Assembly: GCA_023920165.1 (NCBI GenBank)
Contig: CP089278.1
Coordinates: forward strand, 1,302,001-1,366,000
Reading direction: 5' to 3'
DNA length: 64,000 bases
Source: Curvularia clavata
Taxonomy: Eukaryota
Below the pieces are notes generated by a model. It was not told where the DNA came from, made no database searches, and worked only from the letters and a program-made list of their open reading frames with translations. A program made the translations under genes and the position numbers. Shown piece by piece: positions 1 to 57,897 of the stretch. Position 1 is the first letter of the stretch. Every line of letters starts with the position of its first letter.

Positions 1-2020
1 ACTCACCTCCACGATTCGCTACGCCTCCAATACGCCCTCTCTCTCCGGCCCAGGAAGTGGCTCCTCGCGGCCCTCCCAGCAACTACGGATCTTTTGACGG
101 CCGTGGCCGCTCACCCGTTCCTTACGAAGATCCAGAGATTGTGCGTCGCCATCTGGTAGGCCACTATGCCTCGCCCAGCAGGTCTCACCGTGGACGGATA
201 GGCGATGACGATGCGCAGTCGACAGGCAGGAGGCTCGAGGAGGACGAGGAAGAGTTTTCAAGTCTGCAGCTCCAGGGTGGTGATATTACGCGACAGATCT
301 ACAGGTGGAGCGAACAGCAGCAGGCCGAGGAGCAGGGCAAGATGCAGCGCAGCAAGAGCTTCCACGGCTCTCGTCGCAAGCCTGAGGACGAGGCACTGGA
401 TATTGACTCCATCCGCCAGCCGGGTGGCTTCCGACGCAACTACATACGCAGAGCCGCGGGTAGCCCTTCACCCGCACCTGGGCCGGCTGGATATGGTACT
501 GTTCAACAGTCTCGTCAACAGCCTCAGGTCTTTACAAGCAATTTCCTCGAGTTCCTGACCCTGTACGGCCACTTCGCTGGTGAATCACTTGAAGAGGACG
601 ACGAGGTACTAGGGCCTGACGAGTATTTCTCGTCTGATGCGTTGGACTCTGCGGTGCAAAGCGAAGACGAAGACCGAGAATACGGCGAGTCCAGTGCTCT
701 GCTCACACCTGGGAAGCGCAGGAGGCGCAAGCCCAAGAAGACGGGCACGGGTTCGCCTACGGGTGCGGCTCTGTTGCTCCTCAAATCTTTTGTTGGTACG
801 GGTGTGCTCTTCCTGCCTCGAGCTTTCCTGAACGGTGGTATGCTCTTTTCCAACCTCGTGCTTCTCGCTGTGGCGGGTCTCTCGTACGCGTGCTTCGTCT
901 TACTCGTCTCCACGCGTCTTGTGGTTGAGCACTCTTTTGGAGACATGGGCTTCCATCTCTACGGAAACTGGATGCGCAACATGATCAACTCGTCTCTTGT
1001 CATCTCGCAGATCGGTTTCTCATCGGCCTACATCGTCTTCGTCTCAGAGAACCTGCAAGCCTTTGTGCTCGCAGTGTCCAACTGCAAGACCTTCATCGAC
1101 ATCAAGTATATGATTATGATGCAAATGGTCATCTTCTTGCCTCTGTCTCTCTACCGCAACATCAACCACATCCAAAAGCTAGCCTTGGTTGCCGATCTCT
1201 TCATTCTCATGGGTCTCGTGTACCTCTACTACTACGATCTCTTCACCATTGTCGATCAAGGCGGCATCTCCGACATTGCCAGTTTCAACGCCAAAGACTG
1301 GACTCTCTTCATCGGCACCGCCATCTTCACCTTTGAAGGCATCGGTCTCATCATTCCCATCCAGACCGGCATGAAGGAGCCAAAGAAGTTCCCCAAGGTA
1401 CTGGGACTCGTCATGATCATCATCACCGTCGTTTTCCTCAGCGCCGGCGCACTTTCCTACGCCGCCTTTGGATCCAAGACCAAGACGGTCGTGCTTCTCA
1501 ATATGCCTCAGGACAACAAGTTTGTCAACGGCGTTCAGTTCATTTACTCGCTCGCCATCTTGCTCTCCACCCCGCTGCAAATCTATCCTGCCATTGAAAT
1601 CACCAGTCAGCAACTCTTCAGCCGAACCGGCAAGTACAATCCGTATGTGAAGTGGAAGAAGAACTTTTTCCGCTTCTTCATGGTGCTTGTGTGTGCTACG
1701 CTTGCCTGGGCTGGTGCTGGCGACTTGGACAAGTTTGTTAGCTTGGTGGGAAGCTTTGCTTGTATCCCGTTGGTCTTTATTTACCCTGTAAGTTTCTTCC
1801 CGAGGAAAACACCAAAGGAGACATGTCATATACTAACGCATTGCCTTCATAGCCCATGCTGCACTACCGAGCTGTTGCGCGTACAACCGTCGCTCGTGCC
1901 TTTGACGTCCTGCTATGTATCGTCGGCGCTATATGCATGGTGTACACGACCACTCTTACCGTCCAGAGCTGGATCCAGGGCGGCGCTCCAAAGGCGCCTG
2001 GATACTGTGATAGCAAGTAA
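1..2020 (+). CDS. Vacuolar amino acid transporter, Avt3/Avt4 family (5' end outside window)
   Basis: Frame open from window start; motifs LQLQGGDITRQIYRW, PGGFRR, NFLEFLTLYGHFAGE, LLKSFVGTGVLFLP, FTFEGIG; intron 1788-1852 (GTAAGT...TACTAAC...TAG); stop TAA 2018-2020. Confidence 0.92.
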
Positions 2021-29703: not shown

Positions 29704-31628
29704 CTATAGCTTAGCTTTGCTGCTGTTCTTGAGACGTGCATGATACCGATCCCTCATCTCGCGCCTCAGCATCTTGCCCGATGGTGTCCTAGGTATCTAG
29801 ACATTTCATTAGCAATCAGACTCCAACCCTCTCGAAATTGACTTACTGAATCGACAACCTCAATGCCACCAGTCAGCCACTTATGCCGACTCAGCCGTTC
29901 CTGGACCCATTCATGAAGCTTTCTTGCTACTTGTTCTTCACCCTGTTTCTTTCCTTCAGCTGTGAGCACGATCCAAGCACGCACAAACAGTGAGCCGTCG
30001 CCACGATTGTTATCAACACCCGCTACACAGGCATCTTGCACCAAGCCTTCTGGGTGATCAAGCAGCGTGTCTTCGACTTCTGTCGCTGCAACCTGAAGAC
30101 CCTTTACTTTAATCATTTCCTTGAGACGGTCCAGATAATGCAGTCGGTCCTGTTCGTCGCGCATGACGAGGTCTCCCGTACGCAGCCACCCGGGCTCAGC
30201 GAACATCTCAGCCGTGGCTTTTGCATCTTTGAAATACCCCGGTGTCACGACGGGGCCGCGCGCCCAGAGCTCGCCTTTCTCACCTTTGGCTACGTCTTTC
30301 AGTGTGTCTGGGTCCACAACCCGTCCTGACATCCCGGGGAGCAGGTACCCGATCATACCAGGAAGTGCAGGCTCCAAGCCAAAGATTCCGGGCGCTGCTG
30401 GACTTGCAATGCTGGCTGCTTCGCTGAGTCCGTAGCCGCTGGGAATCGGCATTGCGGCGCCTTGCGGGAGCTTCTTGGCTAGTTGGTATGCGACGTCTGG
30501 GGGTAGGTAGGCGGCGCCGCTTCCGGCACCAATGACTGAGCTTAGGTCGTATTTCTCCGTCAAAGGGCTTTGGGCGAGCTGACGTACTAGCGGTGGGACG
30601 AGTGGGAGGTGGGTAATCTTGTACTTTTGGATACTTTTGAGCGCGAGCTCGAGATCCCATTTTGGGAGCATGATGCCAGTGTTCTTGAGAAGGTTGACTC
30701 GGAGCATCCAGACAATCATTCCGTATGAATGATACATTGGGATCACGCCTAAGGTGGTGATGGGTTTCAAGGGTTCGTCGCCTGCGAAGCGGGAGGCTTG
30801 GACTGATGTAATAAGCGTTTGCATGCCTGAATGATAGCCATTGCTGTGCGTTATCATCATGGCTTTGGGGAGACCCGATGTCCCTGAGGACTGAAAGAGG
30901 TATGCCATTCGTTTTCCACCCCGGAGTTTGCGTGGCCGTTCAGGAAGTCTTGAGCCTATTCTTACAAGAGACTCGATAGTGGGATATCCAGATACGCTAT
31001 CAAGCTTGGTGTTGTCACTCAGTACAATGATCTTTTTCGGATCTAGCTTCAGTTTCAAAGGAAGATTATCGCCTTCTCCAGATCCCAACTCGATTGCTGC
31101 TTTCAGCACTGGAAGTAACGTTTCGTGGCACATGATACTCGTGATCTGCATTTTTCTGAGTACCCACCACAGCTCGTATGGTGTGCTTGCTGGACTGATA
31201 CCTCCAAATACCAATTCTGATCGGAAACATGCGTGCGCTACCATTGGATAGTGGATATGATTTCGTGAGAACAACGCTAGAATTTCACCATCTTGCGTGT
31301 CATCAACAGGGCTTTTGCCCAGGCCCAGCGGGTTTGGCCCATCGTAACGCAAAACACGTGCTAATGCGCATGTTCGATGGTAGAAGCTGTGTAATGTGAC
31401 AACTTCCTCCGTTACTGCATTGATGATGAGAGGGTAGTCTTCAGGTAGCGGGTTGTTGGGTGGGAAGCAAAGCTCATGGATGTTGAGATCGTCAGGTGTC
31501 GGTGGAAAGGGTCCATACGGTGAAGTGAAGATCGCTTCATTGTGGGGTTGGTACTTGAATGCATGTGGATCTGGAGAGTCGGGGCCTAGGAACCTAGACC
31601 AATGCGGGTTGAAGATGTTGTGTGTCAT
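29704..31628 (-). CDS. Second AMP-binding acyl/aryl-CoA ligase (4CL-like), peroxisomal
   Basis: QSSGTSGLPK, SGYGLSE, LRTGD, DRLKEMIKVKGLQV; intron 29797-29846 gives IPRTPSGKMLRR...SSKAKL-stop. Confidence 0.9.
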
Positions 31629-32556
31629 TGAAGTAAGAGAACACAAGAGACTTGGCTGTCACTTAATTCCTGAGACTTAATAGTTAAGGGTAGTCGCAGG
31701 GCGCGTAGGTACATCTTGCTGGATTTGCGGGTAATAAAGCAGTTCCCTACTAGACTTCCGAGGTGTAATATGCACCCCGCGTTTCTCCACACAGATTTCA
31801 AGGTGGTGTAGCTAAAGAAGACAAGCGAAACCTGCTTGCGCGTATCCTTTTCCAGCTTAAAAAAGTATCGCAACATCAATGAAGCCTAATTAATCTACGT
31901 TACTGGCCTTGCAGATACAATTCAACCAGAAACAGAGACGACACGAATTCATGTGGAGTATCGGCGAAGAGTCGGTCCTATTCGTAAAGAGAACCCGGAC
32001 TTCTTCAACATTCACTATATGCTCGAACACGTGAGTGCAGATACAACTTGGGGGCCATCATAAACTGCATTGGAGCAGAGCGCACCTGGTATTTTGCTGA
32101 CCATTGTGCGATTTCGGATCTCTTCAAATCGATAGTGCTGCCTGGTTTTACGGTGGGTGGCCTGAAACTCCCGGACACCCTCGATTGTCAGCGTTGGTTT
32201 CAGCTGATCAAGCCACCTCAGATTCGACTTCATTTGTGGGGCTGCCGGTCTGTTGACAGATGTACCTCAGTTGTTATGAGAAAAGGGGATGCGCAAACAA
32301 TGAGCTGGCATACGTTTCAGCCCTCGAAGCGTACACTTAAACTCTGGTGGCGGTGAACCTCGCATGCTGTTCTCCTGGGATTGTCGCGATTTAGTCTCAG
32401 CCACAGCCTTCTCTAGATTTTGGCCCCAACTACGCCGTAATCCACATTTCAGCCTTTATAAGCTTTGCGCAGCCTCTTCTCACAACTCTGCCGTTTTCTG
32501 GGCAGTTTTTCTTAACCCATTCTTCATATTATTCGTGGGATGTGTTGACAGTAGTC

Positions 32557-36878: not shown

Positions 36879-38225
36879 TTTACTTTGTCATAAACGCCCA
36901 GAAGCCCTTTGCGAGCAAAACGCTTGGCAAGTCGACGACGCGGTAGAAGACCTCTGCTACCACAGTAGTCAGGGGTACGCATATCAAGAAACATAACAGT
37001 CCATTCACTGCGTTGCTCATCCCTGACGCAGCCATGTGCTGATAAGCTTTGATTCCGACAGTGTATATGATGATGGATTGGACAAGGAAGAAACCTATGA
37101 CATGTAAGTAACTATTTGCTGTTGGCTATAGCTGCCGGTAGACTTACTGAAGCTTCTCTTGCCAAGTGCAACGAAGAACCCGCTGGATAGAACCCTACGG
37201 GCCACGTCGAACGTTTCTATCAAGAGCGTAGAGCCAAGAATAATGAGATAGTTGTCGATGCGAGCCATGGGTTGGTTTAAGTCCACGTTCTCGTTGAGCA
37301 AGCCGCCCGTATAAATTCCAGTGTGGCTGTAGAGTTCCTCATGGCGGAGGTCCGTCCTCCATGAGATGAACAGGAAGTGCAGCAAGACACCGGTAAAGAC
37401 CATGACTGCGTACAGCGGCCAAAACGGGATTGTGAGATTTCCCATCTGGAATCCTCGGCGCGAGCGAGCTGAGAATTCCATATTGAGCACAGCATCGGCG
37501 ATGAGAAGGCCAGTGATACTGTACCAGGCCCAGCTCTGCACCCAGAATGCGGCGACGATGAAGGCAAGCATTGCCTTTACGCGCCAGGATAGACGGGTAT
37601 TGGGGACAATGATCATGGTCATGTAGACAGTGTAGCTTTGCTGAAAAAGTACGGAGACAATCCAGAGGGTACCAGATGGGAAGGCACTGTTGGCGGCTTG
37701 GCTGCCATAGTCTTTGTTGAGCCAGAAAATCTCAAACATGGAGTTGAAATAGACCAGGAAGTTACGTAGGGGCATGGGTACACCAGTTGAGATGTTCCCA
37801 GTAGACTCCATAAAATCAGAAATGTAGTCGGTGGATGCCGCGTTGAAGGCAGCTGCCGCAACCGAGTACGCAACGAAGGTCGGGATCCAGAGCCTAATGC
37901 CACGACGAAAGATGCTGGATGCGCCCACCTCCCGTGTCTTGCTGGCGAGGTACGGTAGGCATATCGTTCGTGCGGACAGGAAGATGATCCATCCGTAGAT
38001 CAAAGAAGGATTGCAAAAGAGCACCGAAAACGACTTCCGGAGCCCAACTTGATACGAAGGGCCATCGACATTCTTCGAATCTGGGACGGCCGCCGGGAGA
38101 AATGTCTGGAAGAAAACGAAGAGAAAAGATTGAATAACAAAAAGACCTCGGAGCCCAATAAGGTAGTCCTGGTCCATGGCAATGCCTGTGGCATAAGAGC
38201 TTGGCGATGATGTGAACATGGCCAT
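36879..38225 (-). CDS. Acyltransferase-3 (AT3/OafA/OpgC-like) multi-pass membrane protein
   Basis: DYLIGLRG, FRRGIRL (RxxR), GTLWIVS, LGKRSFSFFLVQ, FYRVVDLPS; one intron about 37095-37147; alternative starts at 38219 or 38177. Confidence 0.8.
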
Positions 38226-39914
38226 AGGAGAGGATAGAAGTCCGGACTTCGTTGTGGGTGTCTCTGAGGCTCTGCTTTCACGAGTAGAGAACCTAATATC
38301 AGAAAAGAATACTTCACACAAAAGGGAGGGGAAATGATCAGCCCCCTTCTCAGCTGTCACAAACACTCGACCAAGGCCAGCATCAAACACGTCGTCCCGA
38401 AAAACACGAAACTTGCACGTCCCTAAACGCTCAATGGGAGACCCGAGATCATCGCCTTGGCCCGCTCAGAAAAAGAAAAGCTTATGCACTTCGGGAGGGT
38501 CCTCCTTTCTTGGCGTGGTGCTTCACACTGCAGGTACCACATTACCTCACGACTCCGGCATGAAAACGTTGTTTGGCTACAGCATAAGCTCCTGAAGAGC
38601 AATCCTTGGCGGGGGGTACGCATACCGATAGTTTACTTCTGCAACACTACGAAACTGTTGGTAAGCGTTGTGTCTAGTGGATGAGTAGCGGCCCTAACCA
38701 GTAAGGGATGAGATAAGGCATCGTGATCTCGCCGATATATCGTGTCGATACACCTGTCAAGTACGCCACGTCCGTTCCGCGGCGGCTCGATATGCATAAG
38801 GTTGTATGTCCTGCCGTGCGCCCGCTCCTTGATCCTTACTCTTTCTCTAGAGCGAGTCGTGGCGTCGGTGGAGAACACGGAGGATATTAGACAAGCATAG
38901 CAGTGTTGACGAAGATCTTCCGTACGTGGCACAAAGACTTGACTAGGGTGATTCAGCTGTCACCGGTCGCCCTGACATATACTAGTGTATACATTTGCGC
39001 CTATTCGACAAATGTGTATCAGTGGAACCCAGCAAGGAATGGGACATGCCGAGCATTACTGTCTCGAGACAAACCCGTAAACACCCTGACTCGCGACAGG
39101 AACAAGGCTGAACAAAGCGCCCAGGGGTTCCCACATGGATTTGTTTGTTTTGGCATCTTGGAAGCGTCCGACTCGACAAGACACGATGCACGAACTTAAA
39201 TTAAGCTTGTGGTCTATGCTGCCAGCCGCCAATGCCATTCGCCCATTCCCGAGGTTCATCCCACACGTTGCGCTACCATGCACAGTGTGGGAACTAAGCG
39301 CATGCTCGGCTGTGTCCGGCTGTGTAGATCGGCCGCGTGTCCACCATGTAATCTCCCGAGAATCTTTAACAGCCTCAACAGTGGCTGGTGATGTAACGAA
39401 GCGGTCAACCATAGTGGGTCTCTGATAGCTTGCCGTTGTGAATTTTGCGCTCAAGAGGATCATCACCATGTAAGGATATAGCCCATCTTCAAGTTTAGTG
39501 ATGATCTGCAAATGTTTCTCTGCGTCTTCACAGCGCCATGCACATCACTATAACCATGCAAGGTTATGAGAAAGCACAACATGCCAAGAGGCATCGGCTG
39601 AAAATTTGAATTTCCAACTGTCGCTGCATCCCGATGTCCGCAACCCAATCGACTGGTTCGGACGACTTATCGTTCATCTCCGTGTCTTGCAATCAGAAAG
39701 TTACTGGGATAGTTACCAAAATAGTTGAATCGGTTTTGAAAAGTATATTATTGATACTATTCGAGTGTGTTCGCAGCTCGCGATCACCCAATCGGCTGCT
39801 AGAGCCGCGTACCTAACTATTTATACCGAGAAAAGAAAAGAAAAAGGCGTTTGATATCCGCCCCCAGATAAGGATATACACATCATGATTACAGGAACAT
39901 CCCAGTTCGTCAAG

Positions 39915-41495
39915 CTACTTCCTGGCTGTTGGATTCCAGGAGCTGTACTTGACAAGCTGGCGTGCATGGCCGTACAGGCCAATGGTAGCGTTAAGGACAA
40001 GGTAAAATGGATACAAGACTGAGAAGAGAATGATCATCCTTCTTGTCACAAACTCGGATTTCACTTGATTGGTGATCCAGAGAGTTGCGATCAAGCAAAT
40101 AATACTGAAACGAGGTTAGCAAGATCCAGGGGTTAGGCAGTGCATATGCATTACGAACCTGATAATGAAAAGCCACTGTGAGACAGGGTACTGGAAATAC
40201 ACCAACTTCCATAGCTCCTCTCCATTGGTTGGGAACTTGACGATAACAAATGATGCGACCAGGCATGTGTATTGTGTGACCAGGTAGTAGGACGACTCGC
40301 GGATCAGCAACAGCGATAGCATTCCGAACCGAGCTGTGAAGCTGCGCTTGGCATGTTCCTCGTGCAGCGGATCCTTGACGCCATTCCAAACCATTTTCAT
40401 GTGACGCATACTGGCCTGAGCCCATCCTTGAGCCCATCGGAGGCGCTGCTTCCAAAAGGCTGCAAAGGTTGTTGGTGCCAACTCATACGAAGTAACGTTG
40501 AGGTCATGGACAGTCCTAGCGCCCTTTGAGAATGCGCGCAACGCCGAATCGATGTCCTCCGTCAACATGCTTTCGTCCATCTTGAGGTCGCGGAGAAGAG
40601 AGGTGCGCCAATATCCATTTGATCCGCAGAAGAGCCCGAAGCCCCACATGGTGGACCGACCAGGATGGGAAACTGCGTAGATCTTATCAAATTCGACGGA
40701 GATCATATTGGTCATGAAAGAATCTTCGGAGTTGAAGACGATGCACCTGCCCTGGACAATGTCGACATTCTCTGCCATGAATCGCTCAGCTGCCCACCTT
40801 GGCGCATTGGGGTGGGGGTAGTGATCGCAATCGTAGATGGCAATAAGGTCCGATCCGGTGTCCAGCGTGAAGAAGTAATTCAGATTGTCCGCCTTCGATG
40901 TGGACCCTGGCACCTTGATGACTCTGGCGTGGGGGAAGTGATTTCGAAGATCAGCGAGTTCCGTCTCCAGCGGCTCGATTGGCTTCGGTGTGTTGTAAAG
41001 GATATTAATTCTGATTCGGTCCGTGGGATAGGCGATCTCTCTGAGCGCGTAATGGGCGCGATCCATGATAATGTCCTGCTCGTTTGGCAAATAGGCGACG
41101 ATGAGGAGGTCCAAGATGGGCAGCTGGCTGTCTGGTGTGGGAAAATGCCACTTCTTCTCTTGCGCTTGAGTCACCACTTCCCTTGCCTCGCGGCAGGGTG
41201 TGATGCTGAAAAAAGCCTCCAACACTGTCGTACCGGCGATGTAAAAGTTGGTGCACATGTATATGAACCAGAAAACGGCAATGAGGCCTTCGCTGCAATA
41301 CATGTACATGCATACCGAAAAGACGTAGTATGAAAGGACCAGGCCGAAAGGCGTCCATTCGGAAATCCATGAAGATGACCGTCCGACGAGTTGGGAGGGA
41401 GCCCAACTGCTCTTGGGAGAAGACTTCTCGTCAACACAAGGCGCAGGAGAAGAAACTTCTCCTACATCAATGACACAGTCCTTGTTGTCAGACAT
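39915..41495 (-). CDS. Processive family-2 glycosyltransferase (membrane glycan synthase)
   Basis: AYLPNE, TSKADNLN, DCD (DxD), TED, QRLRW (QxxRW); N- and C-terminal TM helices; one intron about 40105-40158. Confidence 0.92.
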
Positions 41496-42787
41496 CTTGT
41501 AAAGAGTGAAGGATGTGACAGTAACGATTGGAGGAAGGGCCAAAGCAAACGAAGGTGACTACTGTAGCAAAACTCAAAGGAGTGAAGAGATGGCACCGAA
41601 CATATATCGGAATTCCAAAGCCCTGGGTTACTGACTACGCGAGGAAAAGGGTGTGGCGGACAGCCAACGTCTGCCCAGAAAAAACATGATGACCTTGCGT
41701 ACTGGTTCATTTCGACTGTGCAATGACGCTCAGGAGAGCTGGCCTTGGCCCCATCTCACCATTATGCCCATGATCGGCACTGTTATCAACAATGCCCGAC
41801 CCTAATCATGGGAGAAAGGCGGGTTAACCCGGTGGTGCTCAGAGGTCCATGCTCTTCTGGAGTATTCCCACATGTACAGGCATGTAGAGTTTTCTCGATT
41901 TGGGCCCTGAACTAGCGTTCTGCGTACGCAGCAGCCAATGGCATACTTTTTCTTCGTCATGATTCTGCCCATATTTTCGATATGCTTGTTGCATGCAGTA
42001 TGGGGCGGGTCCAAGAGTCAATGCTGTGAGGCTAGGCAAAGTAGCACTAGTAGTTTGTGGGCCGAATTATGTCCTAGTATACCGTATATTGGTGTGACCG
42101 AGTGTGCAGAAGCTGAGATATCCGCCGTGGCTCTAGGTAATCCGGACGACAACGCATCTTCTCCTGTAGCAGGGCATGTGCAGTGGAGCAGTGGAGCATG
42201 TGTCACGGACCTCATATCCCGGAGCAAGCTGGAACAAGCCAAAAATCATGCATGTGGCGAAGATCACTTGAGGAATTGGGGGTCACTAAGTTAACCATCA
42301 GGATCATCACAGCCAGCGTGGGATGAAGAAGGAGGAAGGCCGTGTTAGCGTAGGCGCACGGCCCGCTGCGGTGCACGTCTCCTGGCGCTCTGTTCAGCCC
42401 CCTCCGCCTCTTGCGACAGCGACACAGACCCATGCAACAACATTTGCCATTGTCCCAATCGTCATGACCCTGCCAAGGAAAAGCCTGCAGAGCTTTTTGG
42501 ATCTTGTTGCACAGTGCACGGCTGAAGCGCCGGCGATGACCTCAAGGGGCGGGCCAAGTCACATAGGCAGCGGATAGGGGAGCCATCGCGCCCTACTGCC
42601 ATCTGCTTATGAGGCTACAAGCATGACTGCGGCTCCTCCCCATCCGAAAAGCATTGTTGCACGTTTTTCCTAAGCTCCTTAGATTAGCCGTACCTGCCGA
42701 GTGGCATGCGGTAGACAAATACCACCTTTTCAACTTGAACAAACGGTTTCGCTCTGCCTTCCCTCGTTTGGTCACTCGCTTATCCTC

Positions 42788-45700
42788 ATGATTTACTCGT
42801 CTCTACTGGGGCTTGCCTTGGTGCATATCCTGCCTGCCCTTGCAGACGTCTCCCGTGGGACAGACAACTGTACTTGCGGATTCTATGACGGTCAAACCAA
42901 GCAACTCTATACCGACTCCATCATTGTCTACTTCAATGAGACAACAGGACTACCCTTCGACTTTATTGCCGAAGATTTCGAGCAACACTATGCCAAAGAT
43001 TGGGTACGGACTACACACACGTCACATACATGGGACTCGCCAACTAATTTTGTTTAGAATGCAGTTTACCGTGAGGGTGCGTCTCCGGACAACCTGCGGC
43101 ACGACAATGGCCAGCCTCTTCAGCTTGTAGTACAGCCAACAACAAAAGACCACCTTGTAAACGGTGCCAGTCTTCGGACCAAGAGGCGTGACATCCAGCA
43201 TGGCTCCTTTCGTACCCTGATCAAGCCTGCAAGCTGGGATGCTGGAGGCACAGCGGCTTCCATGATGTGGAAATACAACGAAACAGAAGTGACAGAGCTC
43301 AGTGTCATGAATGGTCACCGCCCAAACCAGCCTTGGGTTGGTACCTTTGTGAACAACGAGTTTACAACTCGTAACCTGGGAATGAACTTCAGTCAGCTCC
43401 TCAATGGCACGGCCGCCAATAGAAACTACACCACCCTAGGCGGTGGACTTCGCAACGGCAGTGTCAACCCATGGGACTTCACAGAATACCGCATCGACTG
43501 GACTGCAGACGACATCACTTTCTATATTGGTGGCAATCTGACCCGCCGGGTTCAGCACAAGAAAAACAAGGGCATGCCGTCAGTCCCTTCAGCAATGTTC
43601 TTCAAGCACTGGTCGACCGGTAACCGTTATTCGATGCAGGGACCTCCTCGAGGAAGAGAGGCGGTTGCTGAAATTGGATGGGTCCGCATGTTCTTCAATT
43701 CGTCGACGATGAGCGAAGACTCTCGTGAGGACTTTGTTGCACGCTGTCCCCTGACCGATGCCTGCTCTACTGACGATTTTGAGCTGCGTGGCTCTACACC
43801 GCACGGCGACGAGGCTACAAAACAGTGGAAGCAGGACGGGCATCGAGACATCAAACGCATGCCGGCACTCTGGATATCTGTCTCGTGTCTTGCCATCTCG
43901 ACTTTCCTCCTTATTCACACGCTCATTCGACGTCTGGGGCCTAAGATTGGTAAACGCGCTCCTGAACCAAGCCCAGTATCACCACCACCACCAACAGCAC
44001 AAGTTGGTCAGGGCCCCTATGGTGAAAGCACATTCACAGTAGAATCTGTGGAGGTCTTTTCACGTCCTCAGACGGGTCAGAAATCGCCATCTGTAAAGCG
44101 CCACTCGGTAGACGACCTGACGATCGAGAGGCTTGACAAAAAGCCCAGTTCATCAACACTTGGAGGTTCCACGCCTAAAGTTGGCCTGTCTCGTGGCAAT
44201 TCCGTCATGTTCGATAGCCGCATGACAACGCCTTATGCAAGCAACTTCAACCCCAGTCGCGAAGACGTTACCAGCCCGACACTCAATGTTCCAGGCTCGT
44301 CTGCTCATCACGATTCGATGCTTACCTTAGCCGACCCACGAGCTCAGCTCTCACCACGCCCAGACAAGATCACCATGGAGACCGTCACTGAGTCCGCTCT
44401 GCCAGCTCCCCGCATGCGCCCTCAACCCCCACCGGCGCGAACCCGTATCGATTATCTTGCGGGACTGACGGCGCTATGCTCCCTCGTTGTTACCATTATG
44501 CATTTCGGTCTTACCTTTGTTCCCGCCATGGTTCAACCGGGTGTGGATGCGCACAATGATTCTGAACCCTGGGCGCAAAGGATCATCGGACCCTTCCTGC
44601 TCAACCAGATGTGGCTCGGTGTGTTCTTCACTACCTCCGTCCGTTTCCTGACTGCAGGGTACCTGCGCAAGGGCAAGATGGATGAAATCGCCAAGGCAGC
44701 CGTACGTCGAACACCGCGTCTCATGATTCCCGTCGCTGCAGTCGCGCTGCTCGAGTACTTCTTCATTGATGTTGGTGCCACCAAGTTCCTTCAGTACATC
44801 CCCAGTCTCACTTGGTCAACTTGGCCGTACGTGACTCGATATCAGAATTTCGGCCAGTACATCTCTGAGGTGCTGGAGCTCATGTTCCTCATCCCCAACG
44901 CTGCACCGCAAATTACTCTTCATTACTGCACTGGTGTGCTCTGGACCATCGCCGTACAGCTTCAGGGTTCATGGCTTGTACTCCTCGGTGCCCTTGTTGT
45001 CTATGAGATCAAGACGCCATGGAAGCGCATGTGCTACTACACGTTCTGTCTCGTAAACCACTGGTACGCTCATTCCTGGGGCACGTATCTCTGGTTCGGT
45101 CTGCTGCTTACCGATCTCGATGTGACATATAACTGGAAGAAGTATCTCTCCAACCGACCAGTTGCTTACTACGCTACATTGATCTTCTTCTGGGGTTGTG
45201 TGGCAGCCGGTTTCGCAGCCAACATCGTCCCCAACTGGGTCCACACAACCTTCAACTTTAGCACTTCAGAGCGAAACATCCACCCAGATCCCGTGACTGG
45301 CGAACCAATTCTCAACACTGATGATGCCGGCTACCCAATCTACTACACTCCACGTCTTAACGGTCTCCTATTTGCCGGCGGCATGCAAGCCGTTGTCGAG
45401 CTCTCCGCAGCCGTCCAGTGGGTTCTCTCGACGCCGCCCTTCCTCATCCTCTTCCCCCATGTCTTCACCATCTACCTCATCCACGGCCTCGTCTTCTGGA
45501 CTTATGGCTCCTGGCTCATGGTATTCCTCGCCGACCGAGGCTTCACCTACGGCATCAACGTCGCCATTGTCGGCGTAACTTCGTACGGCGTCCTCTTCGC
45601 CTGCCTCCCCATCGTCACACCCGTAATCGAGGCCCTCGGCAAAGACATGACCGCGCTGGTCTGGATGACCGCAACCAACAAATCACCTCCGCGCCGCCGC

Positions 45701-46033
45701 ACCCTGTACCCGTACCCCGACGACCTCTTCACGAGCCGCATGCCAAATGAGAAAGAAGATGAGAAAAACTCAAACGGTAGCACTACATCCGACGACGTCG
45801 AAAAGGGTCTCGCCCAGCGCCAAAGCGGCAGCAGCGACGACGACGACTCGCTGCGCCCTCCCAGCAACGCCAGCTCCAAAGGAAAAGACAAGGGCAAGGG
45901 CAAGGCTCCCGTTGAAATCGGCGTGTATGGCATGCATGCTTTCGCCTCTGCATCCTCCTTCAACGACGACACCGACTCGCAGGCGAACAGGAGTCGAGCT
46001 GCGAGTCCTATGGTAAGCCGTTTCAGCGGCTAG
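42788..46033 (+). CDS. Signal peptide, GH16-like domain, TM/linker and acyltransferase-3 domain fusion
   Basis: MIYSSLLGLALVHILPALA signal; CTCGFY, IQHGSFRT, FTEYRIDW...ITFYIGG, KHWSTGN (fungal GH16-like); RIDYLAGL, RRTPRL, GVLWTIAVQLQGS, IYLIHG (AT3); intron 43004-43057. Confidence 0.88.
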
Positions 46034-47018
46034 AGTTTCCTTCTTGTTTCTTTTTTTTTAAACTACTTTGCTTGTTTATTCTCCAAATCATGGATGTGCG
46101 AAGAGTGTCAGCCTCACTCTCTTTATTTTGTATGTGTTGAATGGAAGGAAAAGAGAGACAGATGGAGGGGTTAGAAGAAATTATGGACTGAGGCAGAATT
46201 TTCTCAGGGCGTTCTTCCTTTTTTTTTTTGGATAGGTCGATTAATATGATCTTTTGTGCCCTCTCTAAGATACGTGCATATCTCCACAAGTGACTTTGGT
46301 GAAGTGAGATGCACAAGGCTGGCGGTGAGGGAAAATGAGGCTGTCAAGGTGGTGTCTTTTCAGTCTCTTCCCCAGTCCGCCGTTTCGCCGTCTGTTCATT
46401 GCAAGAACTCGTTTTGTTTCTTTTTTTATCGTAATTTGCTCCTTCCCCCTTTCATCGCATTGCCTTTTTCCCGATCATGCCGTTTATATTTCATTTTCCT
46501 CTGGTCTTTTCTTTTTCTGTTTCTTACGTTTTGTTGTAATCCTCCTAAGTTTAACGGATGCTGGGCTGACCAGGTTGTCGATCACCCTATAAATATGTGC
46601 CGTGACCGTGTCACTTTTTCCCTTTTCTTTTGACTGATTATATATGTGAGGGTTTCGTCGTACGCACGCTTGAAACCTGGATTTTGAAACGTTGTGTTTC
46701 TTCGCACGAGTGGAGGTGTAGGGCATGACACTGGAAGTCTTCTTTTTTGATCGTGTGTTCTATGCGTTGGTGTGAAAGGGAGAGAAGGGGACATGCAATT
46801 TTTTTATTCTCCTTTCTTGACCCAGATAGGTTATGGCATTTTCTTGCTGTTGTGTGTTGCGCCACTGAGGCCATTTGCGATTGCGCGCTCACTCTATAGT
46901 AATCGTGTGAGGCCGTTTGTCATGCTGGCAGTGCCACTCGCATATAGAGACGGTCTGGGCTATTTCATTATGCATAAATACTGCGACATTTCTGCATACT
47001 TCCATCAAGAAATCGTCT

Positions 47019-47689: not shown

Positions 47690-49225
47690 TTACTCGACAA
47701 TCTCGAGCTCGGCCGTCCGGTGCTTGGCAAAAGTATCTTTGTGCTCGTCCCATATGCGCATCAGCTCGTCCACGTACTGTTGATGGACTTGGTTGATGTA
47801 GTCGTTATCCGGATGTTGGTCCTGAATCACTCTGATTGGACGTCCGACCACAATGTTGATGGGCCTGCGGTAGGGCATCATACCGACATCGTAGTTGAAA
47901 ACACCACGCGCGTGGAAGATCGGGACGGTGAAGCCTAGGAACTTCTTGACCAGCATCTGGAATTGATGGATATAAGGATGTGACTCGGTATCGACTTGGT
48001 CGTAGATGTCATTTTCGCCAAACGCGAGAACAGGAACAAGGTCGGCACCGGTACGGATGGCCATCTTCACAAAGCCTTTGCGGCGCCGAAGAACAAGCCT
48101 GATGACGCCGGGACGGGCATCAAGAGATTCGCTGGCGCCACCAACGACAATGGTGATGGCGCGACCCATTCCCTCGCCATTCTGGCCACCTTTAGACAGG
48201 ATGTTCTCGCAAGACTCGCGTGATACAGAAGCCATGCCGAGACGGAGGGCATACTCGCGGTAGATTGGGTAACGAAAGTTTGAATCGAGCGTCAACAGGG
48301 CGTTTGTGATGCCTGGAAACAGCTGGGAGAAGCCGAGAGCTTCCGTGGCGAAGGCAGCAAAGGCGCCGTGTGAGATGATGCCATGCGGATGGTAACCGAA
48401 AATGTACTTCCTCGTTGGCTCCAACTCCTGCGAGCGGTGCAGACGAGCGGGGAAATATGATGCAAAGAGCGACCATACGGGTAGTCGTCGAAACCATTCG
48501 CTCCGGAGAGAAAGCTCTCCTGATGTTCCAGCATTGGAGAAGAGAACGTAGACGGTATATGGGAGAAGGATGGGCCAGAGCAGTGGTATACTGCAGAGGA
48601 AGAAGAAGATGGCGAGACTTCCGACAATGCTGAGCGTATGCATGAGCACGGCGAGGGTCTGGAGACGGCGTTGTAGGGGCACGTTCATGGGAGCAAATCG
48701 TATCCTATAGCTTTTGTCAGTACATTATATTGGCAATTAAGCATACATGTCGACTCACTTGCTCTTGGACCATCCTGCGCCGGCCTGCCGTCCCGTCGTG
48801 AGCTCTGAATTTCTACGCTTGCGGTCGACTCTTCTGTCTTTCTCGGGTAGCTCAACATCCTGTGACGGTTTCACACTGGTTAGCGCATCGCCATTGCCAT
48901 TTATGTGACTCTCAAACATGTCTTTGGGCGGGCTGTTGTCTTGCGTGTGGTTGGAGGATCTGCGAGAGCTGCGCGACGACACACGGCGATGGCCTCTTGC
49001 AGTCGGGCTTTTAGGAGACCCGTCCTGGCCCACGCCTTCATGCGACGTCTTTTCCTCGTCCGAGGTGGGATGTATGCCATTGGTCTTTACCTCGTCGGTG
49101 GTGCCATTAGCATGTGATTGTGGGCCCGACTCGAGAGCCTCTTCGGCAGCGTCCGCATACGTCTTGGGGGGCAGATTGTGCTCGGCGCGCTCCTCAGGCA
49201 CCGAGGGCTCGGGGTTCAACGACAT
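47690..49225 (-). CDS. DGA1: Diacylglycerol O-acyltransferase, DGAT2 family
   Basis: YFP, GYHPHG, VVGGASE, RKGFVKMA, VPVLAFGEND, VVGRPI; intron 48705-48758. Confidence 0.96.
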
Positions 49226-55150: not shown

Positions 55151-57897
55151 ATGGCGGAACCTACCACCATCCCACCTGATATAATCGAGCGGCGGTCCCT
55201 CTGCTTCTCCCGCCCCATACCCGGAATGGTCGTTCAACACGGCGACGCCAGCTTCAAGGACGAACTGTCGCGCATCTTCGACCCCGTGGAGAGCAACGCC
55301 GCCGAGCAGCTCGTCCTCCTCAAGGAATCCCTCCGCCAGGCCGACACCGATACCTTCTGGGCCCAGCTCACCCAAGGTCTCGCCAAGATTGCCGACGCCC
55401 AGTATGCCTTTGTCTCCAAGCGCATCCTCGTCGACGACAAGAACGTCGCTGTCGAGCTGCCCCCAATTGGAGAACCTGGAGCCTGCCTCATGGGCGAGGC
55501 CTTTTACATCAACGATGACCACGGCAACGGACCCGGCCACCTGAGGAACTTCAAGTACCACGCCTACCAGTGCCCGTGTGCCTACATGAAGCACGACAAG
55601 GTCTTCATCATCCCCGAACGTCTCAACGACTTCATCCTCAACAATCCAAACGAACTCATTATTCCCGGCGAGGCCTACCTGGGCATTCCGCTCTTTGCCC
55701 AGGGCAAGTGTTTTGCCCACTTCGGCGTCATGTGGGGGAAAGAGGGGGCCGAGCGACGTCAGTTGAGTTGGGGGTTTTTGGAGATGATGATGCACAGCCT
55801 CGAGGACATGATCTTGGAACGCGTACTCGAGGGCAGCGAATTCGCCAGCTCAGCGCAACCCGTCGACGCCCAAGTCCCCAAGATTGTGCCCCACAAGGCT
55901 GTCTCCGTTGCTCAGTCACTCAAGCCTTATGCTAGGAGCCTATCGCATGAACTGAGGACACCCATGCAGGGCGTGGTTGGCATGCTCGACGTCATGATGG
56001 CAAACGTAAAGGAGGCATCCGAGAGTTTCCAGCTAGACTCACGCACACGCGAGATCCTCCACACGCTCAAGGAGAACATAGAAGCAGTCCAAGGTCAGTG
56101 ACGAATCTGGTGACCTGGCTGCCCCTGAGCAGACTCGAACACTCGTTATTGATTCGATTTTGGAACCATACTAACTGTATTGTAGACAGCTCAAGACGCG
56201 CCGTTGAGGCAGCAGACAATGTCGTTCATGCTTACGACATGAACATGGGAGTTCCCGAAACTCCACTGTCTCCACTAGACAAGACGCCTGACCAATGGAA
56301 TACCTTTTGGCGAGAAATGCGACCTGACCTGATGATTACCGGCAATGGCATGCATGCGCCCCTTCGCGGAGTAAAGAGAAGGAGACAGGAGGTTTCTTGG
56401 GCAGACTACAACTCCAAGGCGCGAGTCGCCAAGCAGGCTCGCCAGCGCATTCGGAATACCCTCTCTGAAGAACCCGTCGCCCGTCACACAAAATCGTGTC
56501 CCCCGAATCCAAGTCCTACGGAAATCAACCAACTAGACAGCGCCTGCTCGCACGGAACCTCGCTCGGCAAATGCGACTCGACCACATCCCCCATCTTCGC
56601 CTCAGAACACTCGACGGTACCAGGACTGCGGCATACAAATATAAGAGAAGTTTTACAGTACGTTATCAATGATGCCCTCAAAGTAGGAGGACGGCCGGAT
56701 TCTGCCGTTGCAGAAGCAACCGAAACAGGCGAGCGTATTGAAGTGCGCACGCGTAGCTCCAACGGAGACGCGCACATAAAATGGATAGAGTGGACTGTTT
56801 CTCCGGATGTGCCAGAAACCATTCTGATCGATGAACGAGACCTCGCCAAGATGGTGTCCTGCCTTGCTTTGAACGCCATCAAATTTACTCAGGACGGATC
56901 TATTACGCTCAAAGCCACACTCAGTGCAAAGGGCCGCTACGTTGTTATCAACATCAAGGACACTGGTTCTGGAATCCCAGCCGCCTTTTTGCCCAATCTT
57001 TTCAAACCTTTTTCAAGAGAAGACGATTCTTTGACACGACAGAGTGAGGGTCTGGGTCTTGGTCTAATGGTCGCCAAGGGCATTGCCAGGAAGCTCGGTG
57101 GCGATCTCTTCTGCCTTCGTTCCCATGTCTCGGGACCAGCCAGGGGATCCGAGTTTGAAATGCGTGTTCCACTTACTCCAGGCGAGATTTGCAGTCGTCC
57201 GGCAACGCCCTTCGGATCACCAACCCCCTCAATCAAATCTCGCATGTCTCTCGACCCGGAGGTGCCCCAGCTGGACCTGAGCCATGGTCCCGTTACTCCT
57301 CCTTTAAACTCCGATACCTTCAAAAGCGACCGCGAGCGACAGGCGCCAATCACGCCTGCCATCACCGTCGAGGACACAAGTTCGCCATCCAACCTTGGCC
57401 TTCCTACCCCTCGTCGCACATCGTCACCCTCGCGGCCTCAACCTGTTAGTGTCTTGTCCTCGGAAAAGGAAGTGGCTCCATCCAATCTCGGCAACCAGCT
57501 TCCTCTCAACATTCTCGTTGTAGATGACAATGCTATCAACAGGCGGGTTCTGGTCAGCATGCTCAACAGACTGGGCTACAAGAACATCACCACAGCCTTC
57601 AACGGCAATGACGCCGTGGAGACTGTCCGTCGCAATGCGCTCGGATCTCCGTCTGAAGTGTTTGATGTTGTTCTCATGGACCTGTGGATGCCGTTGCTCG
57701 ATGGCTTCCAAGCTACCGAGGTAATTCTGTCCATGCCAGAGCTAGCGACCAAGCCTACGATCCTCGCCGTCAGCGCAGACATTACCGACTCCGCTCTCGA
57801 CAAGGCAGTCAAGAGCGGCATGAAGGGATTCGTCACCAAGCCCTTTGTCACTCGCGACATTGCTCGATTGCTTCGAGCATATTGCAAAATTCAGTAA
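55151..57897 (+). CDS. Hybrid sensor histidine kinase (GAF-like, HisKA, HATPase_c, receiver)
   Basis: H-box SHELRTP, NAIKFT, DTGSGI, GLGLGL, receiver VVDDN...LMDLWMPLLDG...KP; intron 56094-56185. Confidence 0.94.

Follow-up and report, generated by a model that had tools for sequence, protein, structure and literature searches.

A conserved GH16-like domain lacking both catalytic glutamates is fused to an AT3-like acyltransferase domain and encoded beside a processive GT2 synthase in Curvularia clavata

Introduction

In glycoside hydrolase family 16 (GH16), the E-x-D-x-E motif provides the nucleophile, an assisting Asp and the acid/base residue. In the BcsA-BcsB pair, BcsB crosses the membrane once and guides the nascent chain by means of its carbohydrate-binding domains. 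GH16 homologs devoid of catalytic residues have been described in insects, where the beta-1,3-glucan recognition proteins (beta-GRPs) and GNBPs are read as binders (available part of PMC6403176), and in fission yeast a transmembrane (TM)-anchored GH16 protein, Ghs2, and the glucan synthase Bgs3 are presented as a synthase-remodeler pair in the accessible part of PMC13612389. On the acyltransferase side, the available portion of the review PMC9558356 names fusions of AT3 proteins with SGNH and alanine-racemase domains, does not contain the term "glycoside hydrolase", and mentions almost no characterized eukaryotic AT3 protein. Here we examine a 64,000-nucleotide stretch of the genome of Curvularia clavata (assembly GCA_023920165.1, contig CP089278.1, positions 1,302,001 to 1,366,000 of the forward strand), hereafter the window, in which a gene at 42788..46033 encodes a protein joining an N-terminal GH16-like domain to a C-terminal AT3-like acyltransferase domain. 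An earlier, sequence-only reading of this DNA had proposed that the GH16-like domain is a pseudo-enzyme, and our analysis bears this out, the two catalytic glutamates being absent family-wide while the domain stays conserved.

Proteins of this family are annotated generically in databases, and pseudo-GH16 binders and two-domain AT3 enzymes are each already known. A literature search for a dead GH16 domain placed N-terminal to an AT3 domain and encoded beside a GT2 found nothing, nor any paper dealing with both PF01757 and PF00722.

Results

The N-terminal domain keeps the GH16 fold and has lost the catalytic glutamates

All positions are those of the window, and the elements of the fusion gene lie on the + strand. 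The GH16-like domain spans amino acids 21-330 (42848..43831, with the intron inside this range). It matches PF00722 with 33.2 bits (cut-off 22, E 4.5e-8), which makes it GH16 by sequence, and the same profile is matched by 35/35 orthologs. The structure of the full-length fusion was predicted from a 35-sequence alignment (mean predicted local distance difference test score, pLDDT, 66; predicted template modeling score, pTM, 0.53), the block means of pLDDT over the GH16-like domain ranging from 72 to 94. Foldseek placed Bacillus 1,3-1,4-beta-glucanases as the best PDB matches of this domain (1u0a_A, E 1.5e-10, TM-score 0.73), and a VIA structural search returned lichenase 3i4i_A (Z 19.4, root-mean-square deviation 2.6, 202 residues aligned) and Crh5 (Z 18.2). 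The beta-jelly-roll fold of GH16 is present in the predicted model. By sequence, the best PDB match of the family profile is the chitin-acting Crh5/Crf1 (E 1.3e-5); alignments of the profile to PDB sequences covered only the region past the catalytic strand, and the register of the motif is not fixable from these alone.

Closer relatives bridge this gap. A full HMMER scan with the domain profile yielded 610 representatives at E <= 0.001 (331 at <= 1e-10 and 124 at <= 1e-30), and the short proteins with an intact EIDxE stand last among the 150 best matches listed; a word-based search for shorter relatives gave 26 matches that look like fragments of this family, none of them a stand-alone enzyme. 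The canonical relatives are P0285 (Microthyrium), P0286 (Cunninghamella), P0287 (Umbelopsis), P0267 (Basidiobolus) and P0290, the four named ones all being fungal, and the five score 65-78 bits against PF00722 versus 26-33 bits for the fusion family. Aligned with hhalign, the fusion family and these five GH16s match with a probability of 99.9 and an E of 4.8e-34 over 259 columns, free of gaps in the motif, which sets V150/T151/E152/L153/S154 on E/I/D/M/E. The same register was obtained with hmmalign in 4/5 canonical rows, the fifth being off by two. In turn, the canonical EIDIE aligns to the EIDIE of Bacillus lichenases with an E of about 1e-19.

In this register the former catalytic strand is V150-T-E-L-S-V-M-N157 (43289..43312), as given by the alignments and by a model strand at 150-157, and V150 (43289..43291) occupies the nucleophile position, E152 (43295..43297) that of the assisting Asp and S154 (43301..43303) that of the acid/base. 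Thus, instead of the E-x-D-x(x)-E of catalytic GH16s, the protein reads V150-T-E152-L-S154. The register assigned earlier from the letters alone, with Val at the nucleophile and Ser at the acid/base position, is therefore upheld by hhalign, by hmmalign and, via the relatives, by the lichenases. Its raw material was equally sound: W143-K-Y-N-E-T-E-V-T-E-L-S-V155 is encoded at 43268..43306, the flanking motifs GSFR (121-124), EYRIDW (215-220) and HWSTGN (256-261) are in place, and the fungal motif used for comparison is close to the letters of the nearest canonical relatives, YKNDTSEIDMETL and DDTQEIDIEVIG. As for the glutamates of the E-T-E-V-T-E run, E152 alone falls on a motif position, that of the middle Asp, and neither E147 nor E149 does so: residues 145-149 lie in the loop preceding the strand in the predicted model, and E147 is variable inside a conserved N-x-T sequon. 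This N-glycosylation sequon, N146-E-T148 (43277..43285), immediately precedes the strand.

Two other registers were considered and rejected. An ExDxxE register (E149/T151/S154), suggested by a weak phmmer hit on the carrageenase 9ijc (E 0.13), was discarded because the nearest relatives have a non-bulged EIDxE and the hhalign alignment is gap-free in the motif. An E147-x-E149-x-x-E152 register places two of its residues, E147 and E149, in the loop, the first of them varying within the sequon, and is supported by no alignment.

The loss is family-wide and the remainder of the domain is conserved

Residue counts were made over the 224 family rows that span the motif, the five canonical rows being excluded. 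At the nucleophile column, Glu occurs in 3/224 rows (P0134, P0188 and P0197), the rest having S (60), V (58), T (39), I (12), A (11) and others. At the acid/base column Glu is never found (0/224), and the residues are S (107), D (56), N (50), G (6), A (4) and F (1). The middle column holds E in 141/224 rows and D in 11, with Q, S, N or T making up the remainder (64/224), and position 149, a conserved residue specific to the fusion family, is E or Q in 194/224 rows (Q in 61). Where the canonical relatives show an invariant column, the fusion family keeps it at 86-100%, namely D117 (100%), G121 (99%), F123 (96%), R124 (88%), E215 (86%), R217 (91%), D219 (94%), W220 (99%), H256 and W257 (94% each), G267-P-P (99-100%), F285-N286 (98-100%) and C302 (100%). 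Since these other signature columns persist, the loss is selective for the catalytic residues. Furthermore, the mean identity to the C. clavata protein (P0003) over 34 orthologs is 58% for the GH16-like domain and 68% for the AT3 domain, versus 30% for the linker between them and 19% for the C-terminal tail, and a domain about as conserved as the membrane parts is a pseudo-enzyme that has been maintained, rather than a remnant in decay. The explanation that best accommodates these alignments is that the domain can no longer run the canonical retaining mechanism, and we regard it as probable.

A FastTree tree was built from 98/156 candidate rows, each with at least 200 match columns, and rooted on the five canonical GH16s. 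The three Glu-bearing members branch within the main clade, four nodes deep (supports 0.84-0.96), and a protein of the basidiomycete Meira miltonrushii falls in a second, divergent clade. The node joining the whole fusion family has a support of only 0.67, the tree being a quick one with a weak root node. This topology points to an old loss of the glutamates, probably a single one, that has long been maintained.

Three database entries of the family have an unusual length or content. P0117 (1459 aa, Recurvomyces) is over-long and its N terminus aligns like the GT2 neighbor described below, which suggests a merged gene model of an adjacent GT2/fusion pair. P0212 (1423 aa), also over-long, is filed under Quercus suber (oak), in all probability through fungal contamination. 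P0129, of 450 aa and from a 22.9-kb contig, consists of the GH16-like domain, its TM helix and a short tail, without the AT3 part; the gene model may be truncated, or the protein may be naturally unfused.

The domain is held by its own helix to an AT3-like acyltransferase

Past the GH16-like domain, the predicted structure shows a single TM helix at amino acids 337-365 (43850..43936), directly followed by a basic RRLGPKIGKR segment. Next comes a disordered Ser/Pro/Thr-rich linker at amino acids 369-531 (43946..44434; pLDDT <50), in which S, P and T account for 38% of residues. The AT3-type acyltransferase domain occupies amino acids 535-950 (44444..45691) and is followed by a disordered acidic/Ser-rich C-terminal tail of low identity at 951-1063 (45692..46030). 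At the other end of the protein, a signal-peptide-like helix is predicted at residues 2-13. Nine N-x-S/T sequons are present in the beta domain and 0 in the 169-residue linker; those at N50, N146, N182 and N286 are kept in 33-35/35 orthologs, the N146 sequon being present in 35/35, with N in 219/224 family rows. Because the sequons are in the domain and not in the linker, basic residues come right after the TM helix and the N terminus resembles a signal peptide, we infer an outside (or lumenal) beta domain and a cytosolic linker. The extracytoplasmic location proposed in the sequence-only reading is thus supported by three cues.

The assignment of the C-terminal part to AT3 comes from the family as a whole and from structural matches. 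In the window, the region scores 20.5 bits against PF01757 (cut-off 31, E 2.8e-4, profile positions 3-319 of 326); the profile is matched at E <= 0.01 by 17/35 orthologs, the best at 7e-9, and the relative P0241 reaches 46.7 bits. Among the relatives listed, 36/120 bear both families, GH16 and AT3, in precomputed annotation. The predicted model contains a helix bundle at residues 537-945, and VIA aligned it to 8jkv_A, which has the HGSNAT fold (Z 16.1, 287 residues aligned, model 534..930), and to HGSNAT 8tu9_B (Z 14.9); the HGSNAT and AT3 folds are united in the accessible part of PMC12423673. According to the model, the ten-helix transmembrane acyltransferase fold is present. The view that the fused part is AT3-like at family level therefore finds support both in the orthologs that match PF01757 and in the HGSNAT structural matches. 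H554 is found in 35/35 orthologs and lies in the first helix (537-559), and R623 (35/35) and R626 (33/35), which form the R623-x-x-R626 motif, stand at the start of the third helix. As given in the available part of PMC7448272, mutagenesis of OafA has shown that the His of the first TM helix (TMH1) and the RXXR motif are essential. H554, R623 and R626 were matched to OafA H25, R69 and R72 by helix position and not by residue-level alignment, and the R/K-X10-H spacing is not kept in the fusion (T543). Beyond GH16 and AT3, no SGNH or other further family was recognized in the fusion by Pfam; the C-terminal 113 aa are disordered, and the architecture is not that of AT3-SGNH proteins.

A processive GT2 synthase and a second AT3-like protein are encoded next to the fusion

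Divergently from the fusion gene, two exons on the - strand (41495..40159 and 40104..39915) encode a putative processive membrane GT2 synthase of BcsA/PgaC-like type. It matches PF13632 (1.1e-21) and, as a profile, bacterial BcsA in the PDB (6e-11), as well as the CelA and PgaC/IcaA models, and its DCD, TED and QRLRW motifs are intact. Its intron (40105..40158) is spliced out in contigs of the public runs X1, X3 and X21. The GT2 is more conserved than the fusion, with a mean column identity of 62% over 30 orthologs.

Pairing of the two genes extends to other species. The locus tags of fusion and GT2 are adjacent in Neocucurbitaria cava, Coniothyrium glycines and Sarea resinae (N0V83_004904/05, ACN47E_002428/29 and M1819_002080/81), and 10 further pairs of fusion and GT2 proteins probably share a contig, as their longest contigs are equal in size (<=40 kb). 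By these sequence records, the genomic pairing of the fusion with a processive GT2 is conserved across fungal classes. Among the 120 GT2 matches listed, there is no Aspergillus or Sordariomycete name, and this absence argues weakly against Tft1 or Cps1 orthology. The accessible parts of PMC5653360, PMC9500679, 10.64898/2026.09.17.752320 and PMC4344333 give no neighbor genes for synthases of the Cps1/ZtGT2, Cps2 and Tft1 types.

Downstream of the GT2 gene, a large open reading frame (37095..38462, - strand) encodes a stand-alone paralog of the fusion's AT3-like domain, with 23% identity over 396 residues (BLASTP E 1e-10). An intron (37093..37145) and one more exon follow on its 3' side, and RNA-type contigs of two runs show the gene in spliced form. 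Pfam gave no match for the protein, in which a Val replaces H554 of the fusion and R-G-I-R is retained; it could be an accessory subunit, or a pseudo-enzyme in its turn.

Farther out, the flanks encode an AMP-binding acyl-activating enzyme (29766..31655, - strand), a DAGAT-family acyltransferase (47690..48721, - strand) and a hybrid histidine kinase (55951..57894, + strand), along with CorA, MFS and Stk19 proteins, and show no evident link to the three-gene group.

The fusion gene is transcribed and spliced as modeled

Exon 1 (42788..43003) starts at the ATG at 42788 and encodes amino acids 1-72. These comprise the signal-peptide-like N terminus (1-20) and the opening strands of the GH16-like domain, with the conserved C28-x-C30-G-F motif and the sequon at N50. 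A 54-nt GT..AG intron (43004..43057), with an in-frame TAG at its end, separates exon 1 from exon 2 (43058..46033), which encodes amino acids 73-1063 and the stop codon (46031..46033). The spliced product has 1063 aa and is 100% identical to P0003, a database entry of Curvularia clavata for an uncharacterized "GH16 domain-containing protein".

The intron is precisely spliced out in assembled contigs from two public runs of two studies (X3 and X21). One of these contigs (run X3, record 16) spans 42463..46207, and because it covers the whole gene in spliced form we conclude that the gene is transcribed and spliced as modeled. The runs were labeled as RNA by guess, and the splice joints are the actual proof of transcripts. 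By the same token, the fusion, GT2 and stand-alone AT3-like genes have all been seen spliced in RNA-type contigs.

One contig of run X1 (42978..46300) retains the fusion intron and stems from genomic DNA or from retained-intron transcripts. At 45835, within the Ser/Asp-rich tail, 3 bases are missing in frame from the contigs of three runs, and small differences between these contigs and the window occur in the 3' untranslated region (46060..46219); both are probably strain differences.

Discussion

A proposed glycan-holding role for the dead GH16 domain

The residues of the GH16 signature outside the catalytic motif are under purifying selection, which leads us to conclude that the domain still works, most likely as a glycan binder. 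The tether to AT3 and the pairing with GT2 across fungal classes are the grounds on which we extend this to a model for O-acylation of the GT2 polymer. The N-terminal domain belongs by descent to the lichenase/Crh-type GH16 branch, whose motif is non-bulged (E-x-D-x-E), and would have lost its nucleophile and acid/base Glu before the radiation of the fusion family, becoming a non-hydrolytic glycan-binding module held by its own TM helix to the AT3 acyltransferase. The GT2 would extrude a beta-linked polymer, the dead GH16 cleft would hold this chain at the membrane surface, and the AT3 domain would move an acyl group (probably acetyl, taken from acyl-CoA) through the membrane and attach it to the chain. 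The domain would thereby take the acceptor-positioning part that is played elsewhere by SGNH domains, which also catalyze transfer, or by guides of the BcsB type. Overall, we consider it rather probable that the domain binds glycans and holds the GT2 product for O-acylation by AT3. The sequence-only reading had likewise suggested a beta-glucan-binding module that could present the nascent chain to the AT3 part.

Several observations weigh against this proposal. The residues ahead of the motif are SSFFTY in lichenases and S-M-M-W-K-Y here (two alignments chained), and the letters of the lichenases' aromatic sugar platform are thus replaced in part. The middle position is often still acidic (E in 141/224), the acid/base column holds Asp in 52/104 representatives and position 149 is so constantly E or Q (194/224); together, these alignment columns may leave room for non-canonical chemistry. 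The conserved N146 glycan site at the head of the strand could fill or shield the cleft. As for the partners, the AT3 region of the window scores under the Pfam gathering threshold (20.5 versus 31 bits), the GT2 is BcsA/PgaC-like at scores far under every equivalog cut-off, and the adjacency of the two genes outside this window is deduced from tag numbering and matching contig sizes, not from inspected DNA.

The loss of part of the aromatic platform and the many conserved N-glycan sites on the domain, together with the conserved adjacency of three genes for membrane proteins, would also suit a protein-protein or scaffold module that docks the GT2 or the stand-alone AT3-like protein, or serves folding or trafficking. 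We hold this to be improbable, although it is the strongest of the alternatives, as the residues that have been kept are the GH16 signature shared with active relatives, none of which a pure docking surface needs.

Slightly less probable still is a domain that remains an enzyme with a non-canonical catalytic set, trimming or transglycosylating the GT2 product. Such a set might consist of E152 and E149 here, of an Asp at the acid/base column in other lineages, or catalysis might be substrate-assisted, on an N-acetylhexosamine polymer, and do without a nucleophile from the enzyme. Indeed, E152 occupies the Asp position that faces the cleft, S-E-D, with E at 152 and D at 154, is the most frequent triad in the representatives (16/104), and E/Q149 is family-specific and conserved (194/224). 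The resemblance of the GT2 to PgaC as well as BcsA and the chitin-acting Crh5/Crf1 as best PDB sequence match also speak for it. No acidic pair, however, is conserved family-wide: residue 154 is S here and N in 50/224 rows, 152 is Q, S, N or T in 64/224 and 149 is Q in 61. Furthermore, E149 lies in the loop before the strand in the model, and no GH16 is known to us that works without the E...E pair, although no search aimed at one was made.

We find it very unlikely that the dead GH16 domain is a sensor which reads a wall polymer and signals through the linker, with AT3 as regulated output or relic, an idea also raised in the sequence-only reading: nothing speaks for it except the long, disordered, Ser/Pro/Thr-rich linker and the single-pass ectodomain layout, whereas this linker is the least conserved part bar the tail (30%), no signaling domain is recognized by Pfam, AT3 is the most conserved region with its key residues kept, and pairing with a synthase fits biosynthesis better.

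The glycan-holding reading can be carried one step further, as a tentative proposal in which we place clearly less confidence. By analogy with BcsB, the dead GH16 domain could be the chain-holding subunit of an ancient fungal machine, composed of the GT2, the fusion and the His-less AT3-like paralog, that would make and O-acylate an extracellular or outer-wall beta-glycan, its cleft leading the chain out of the synthase pore and on to that of AT3. Such a machine would be present in the Ascomycota and in at least one lineage of the Basidiomycota.

Fungal walls and matrices include minor polymers with unassigned genes and chemistry, and a conserved and expressed gene group offers a testable entry to an acylated surface glycan. 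The group also bears on how AT3 enzymes without an SGNH partner find their acceptor, and it would illustrate how a glycoside hydrolase fold can become a presumed lectin as part of a biosynthetic enzyme. Plant pathogens are numerous among the carriers listed (Bipolaris, Alternaria, Pyrenophora, Plenodomus and Botrytis relatives), and one may speculate that the product could matter for surface growth or host recognition.

Comparison with known systems

With canonical fungal GH16s and Bacillus lichenases (1gbg, 1mac, 1u0a and 3i4i), the N-terminal domain shares the jelly-roll fold and nearly all signature motifs; those common to the fusion and the canonical GH16s are CxCGF, RxDIxxGSFR, EYRxDW, HW..G..GPP and FNSS..C..C. 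The canonical relatives have EIDxE and are short proteins with hydrophobic C termini, whereas the fusion has V-T-E-L-S and is TM-tethered to AT3. In its lack of catalytic glutamates the domain resembles the beta-GRP/GNBP proteins, whose beta-glucan binding it may share. Those are, however, soluble animal immune receptors of the laminarinase-type branch, in contrast to a fungal, membrane-tethered and acyltransferase-linked domain of the lichenase/Crh type.

The fusion is akin to the AT3-SGNH proteins OafA, OafB and OatA in that AT3 is joined to an extracytoplasmic, carbohydrate-facing domain and that the TMH1 His and RXXR are present. In these proteins the partner is a C-terminal SGNH transferase past the 11th helix, while here it is an N-terminal dead GH16 domain with its own helix and a cytosolic linker of roughly 165 aa. 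The analogy to OatA/OafA that had been drawn from the sequence thus holds for sidedness and fails for position, for fold and for a transferase active site, of which the domain shows no sign.

With regard to gene arrangement, a processive GT2 encoded beside AT3-type membrane proteins is reminiscent of icaADBC/pgaABCD, where IcaA occurs with IcaC, and of BcsA-BcsB; these systems are bacterial, and it is the arrangement of the genes that is compared here. Finally, the Ghs2-Bgs3 pair places a TM-anchored GH16-domain protein where the polymer exits from the membrane, as described in the part of the report available, and the fusion would occupy a similar place. Ghs2, however, is put forward there as a branching enzyme with activity, has a beta-1,3-glucan synthase as partner and is without an AT3 fusion, whereas the Curvularia protein would hold the chain for its own acyltransferase.

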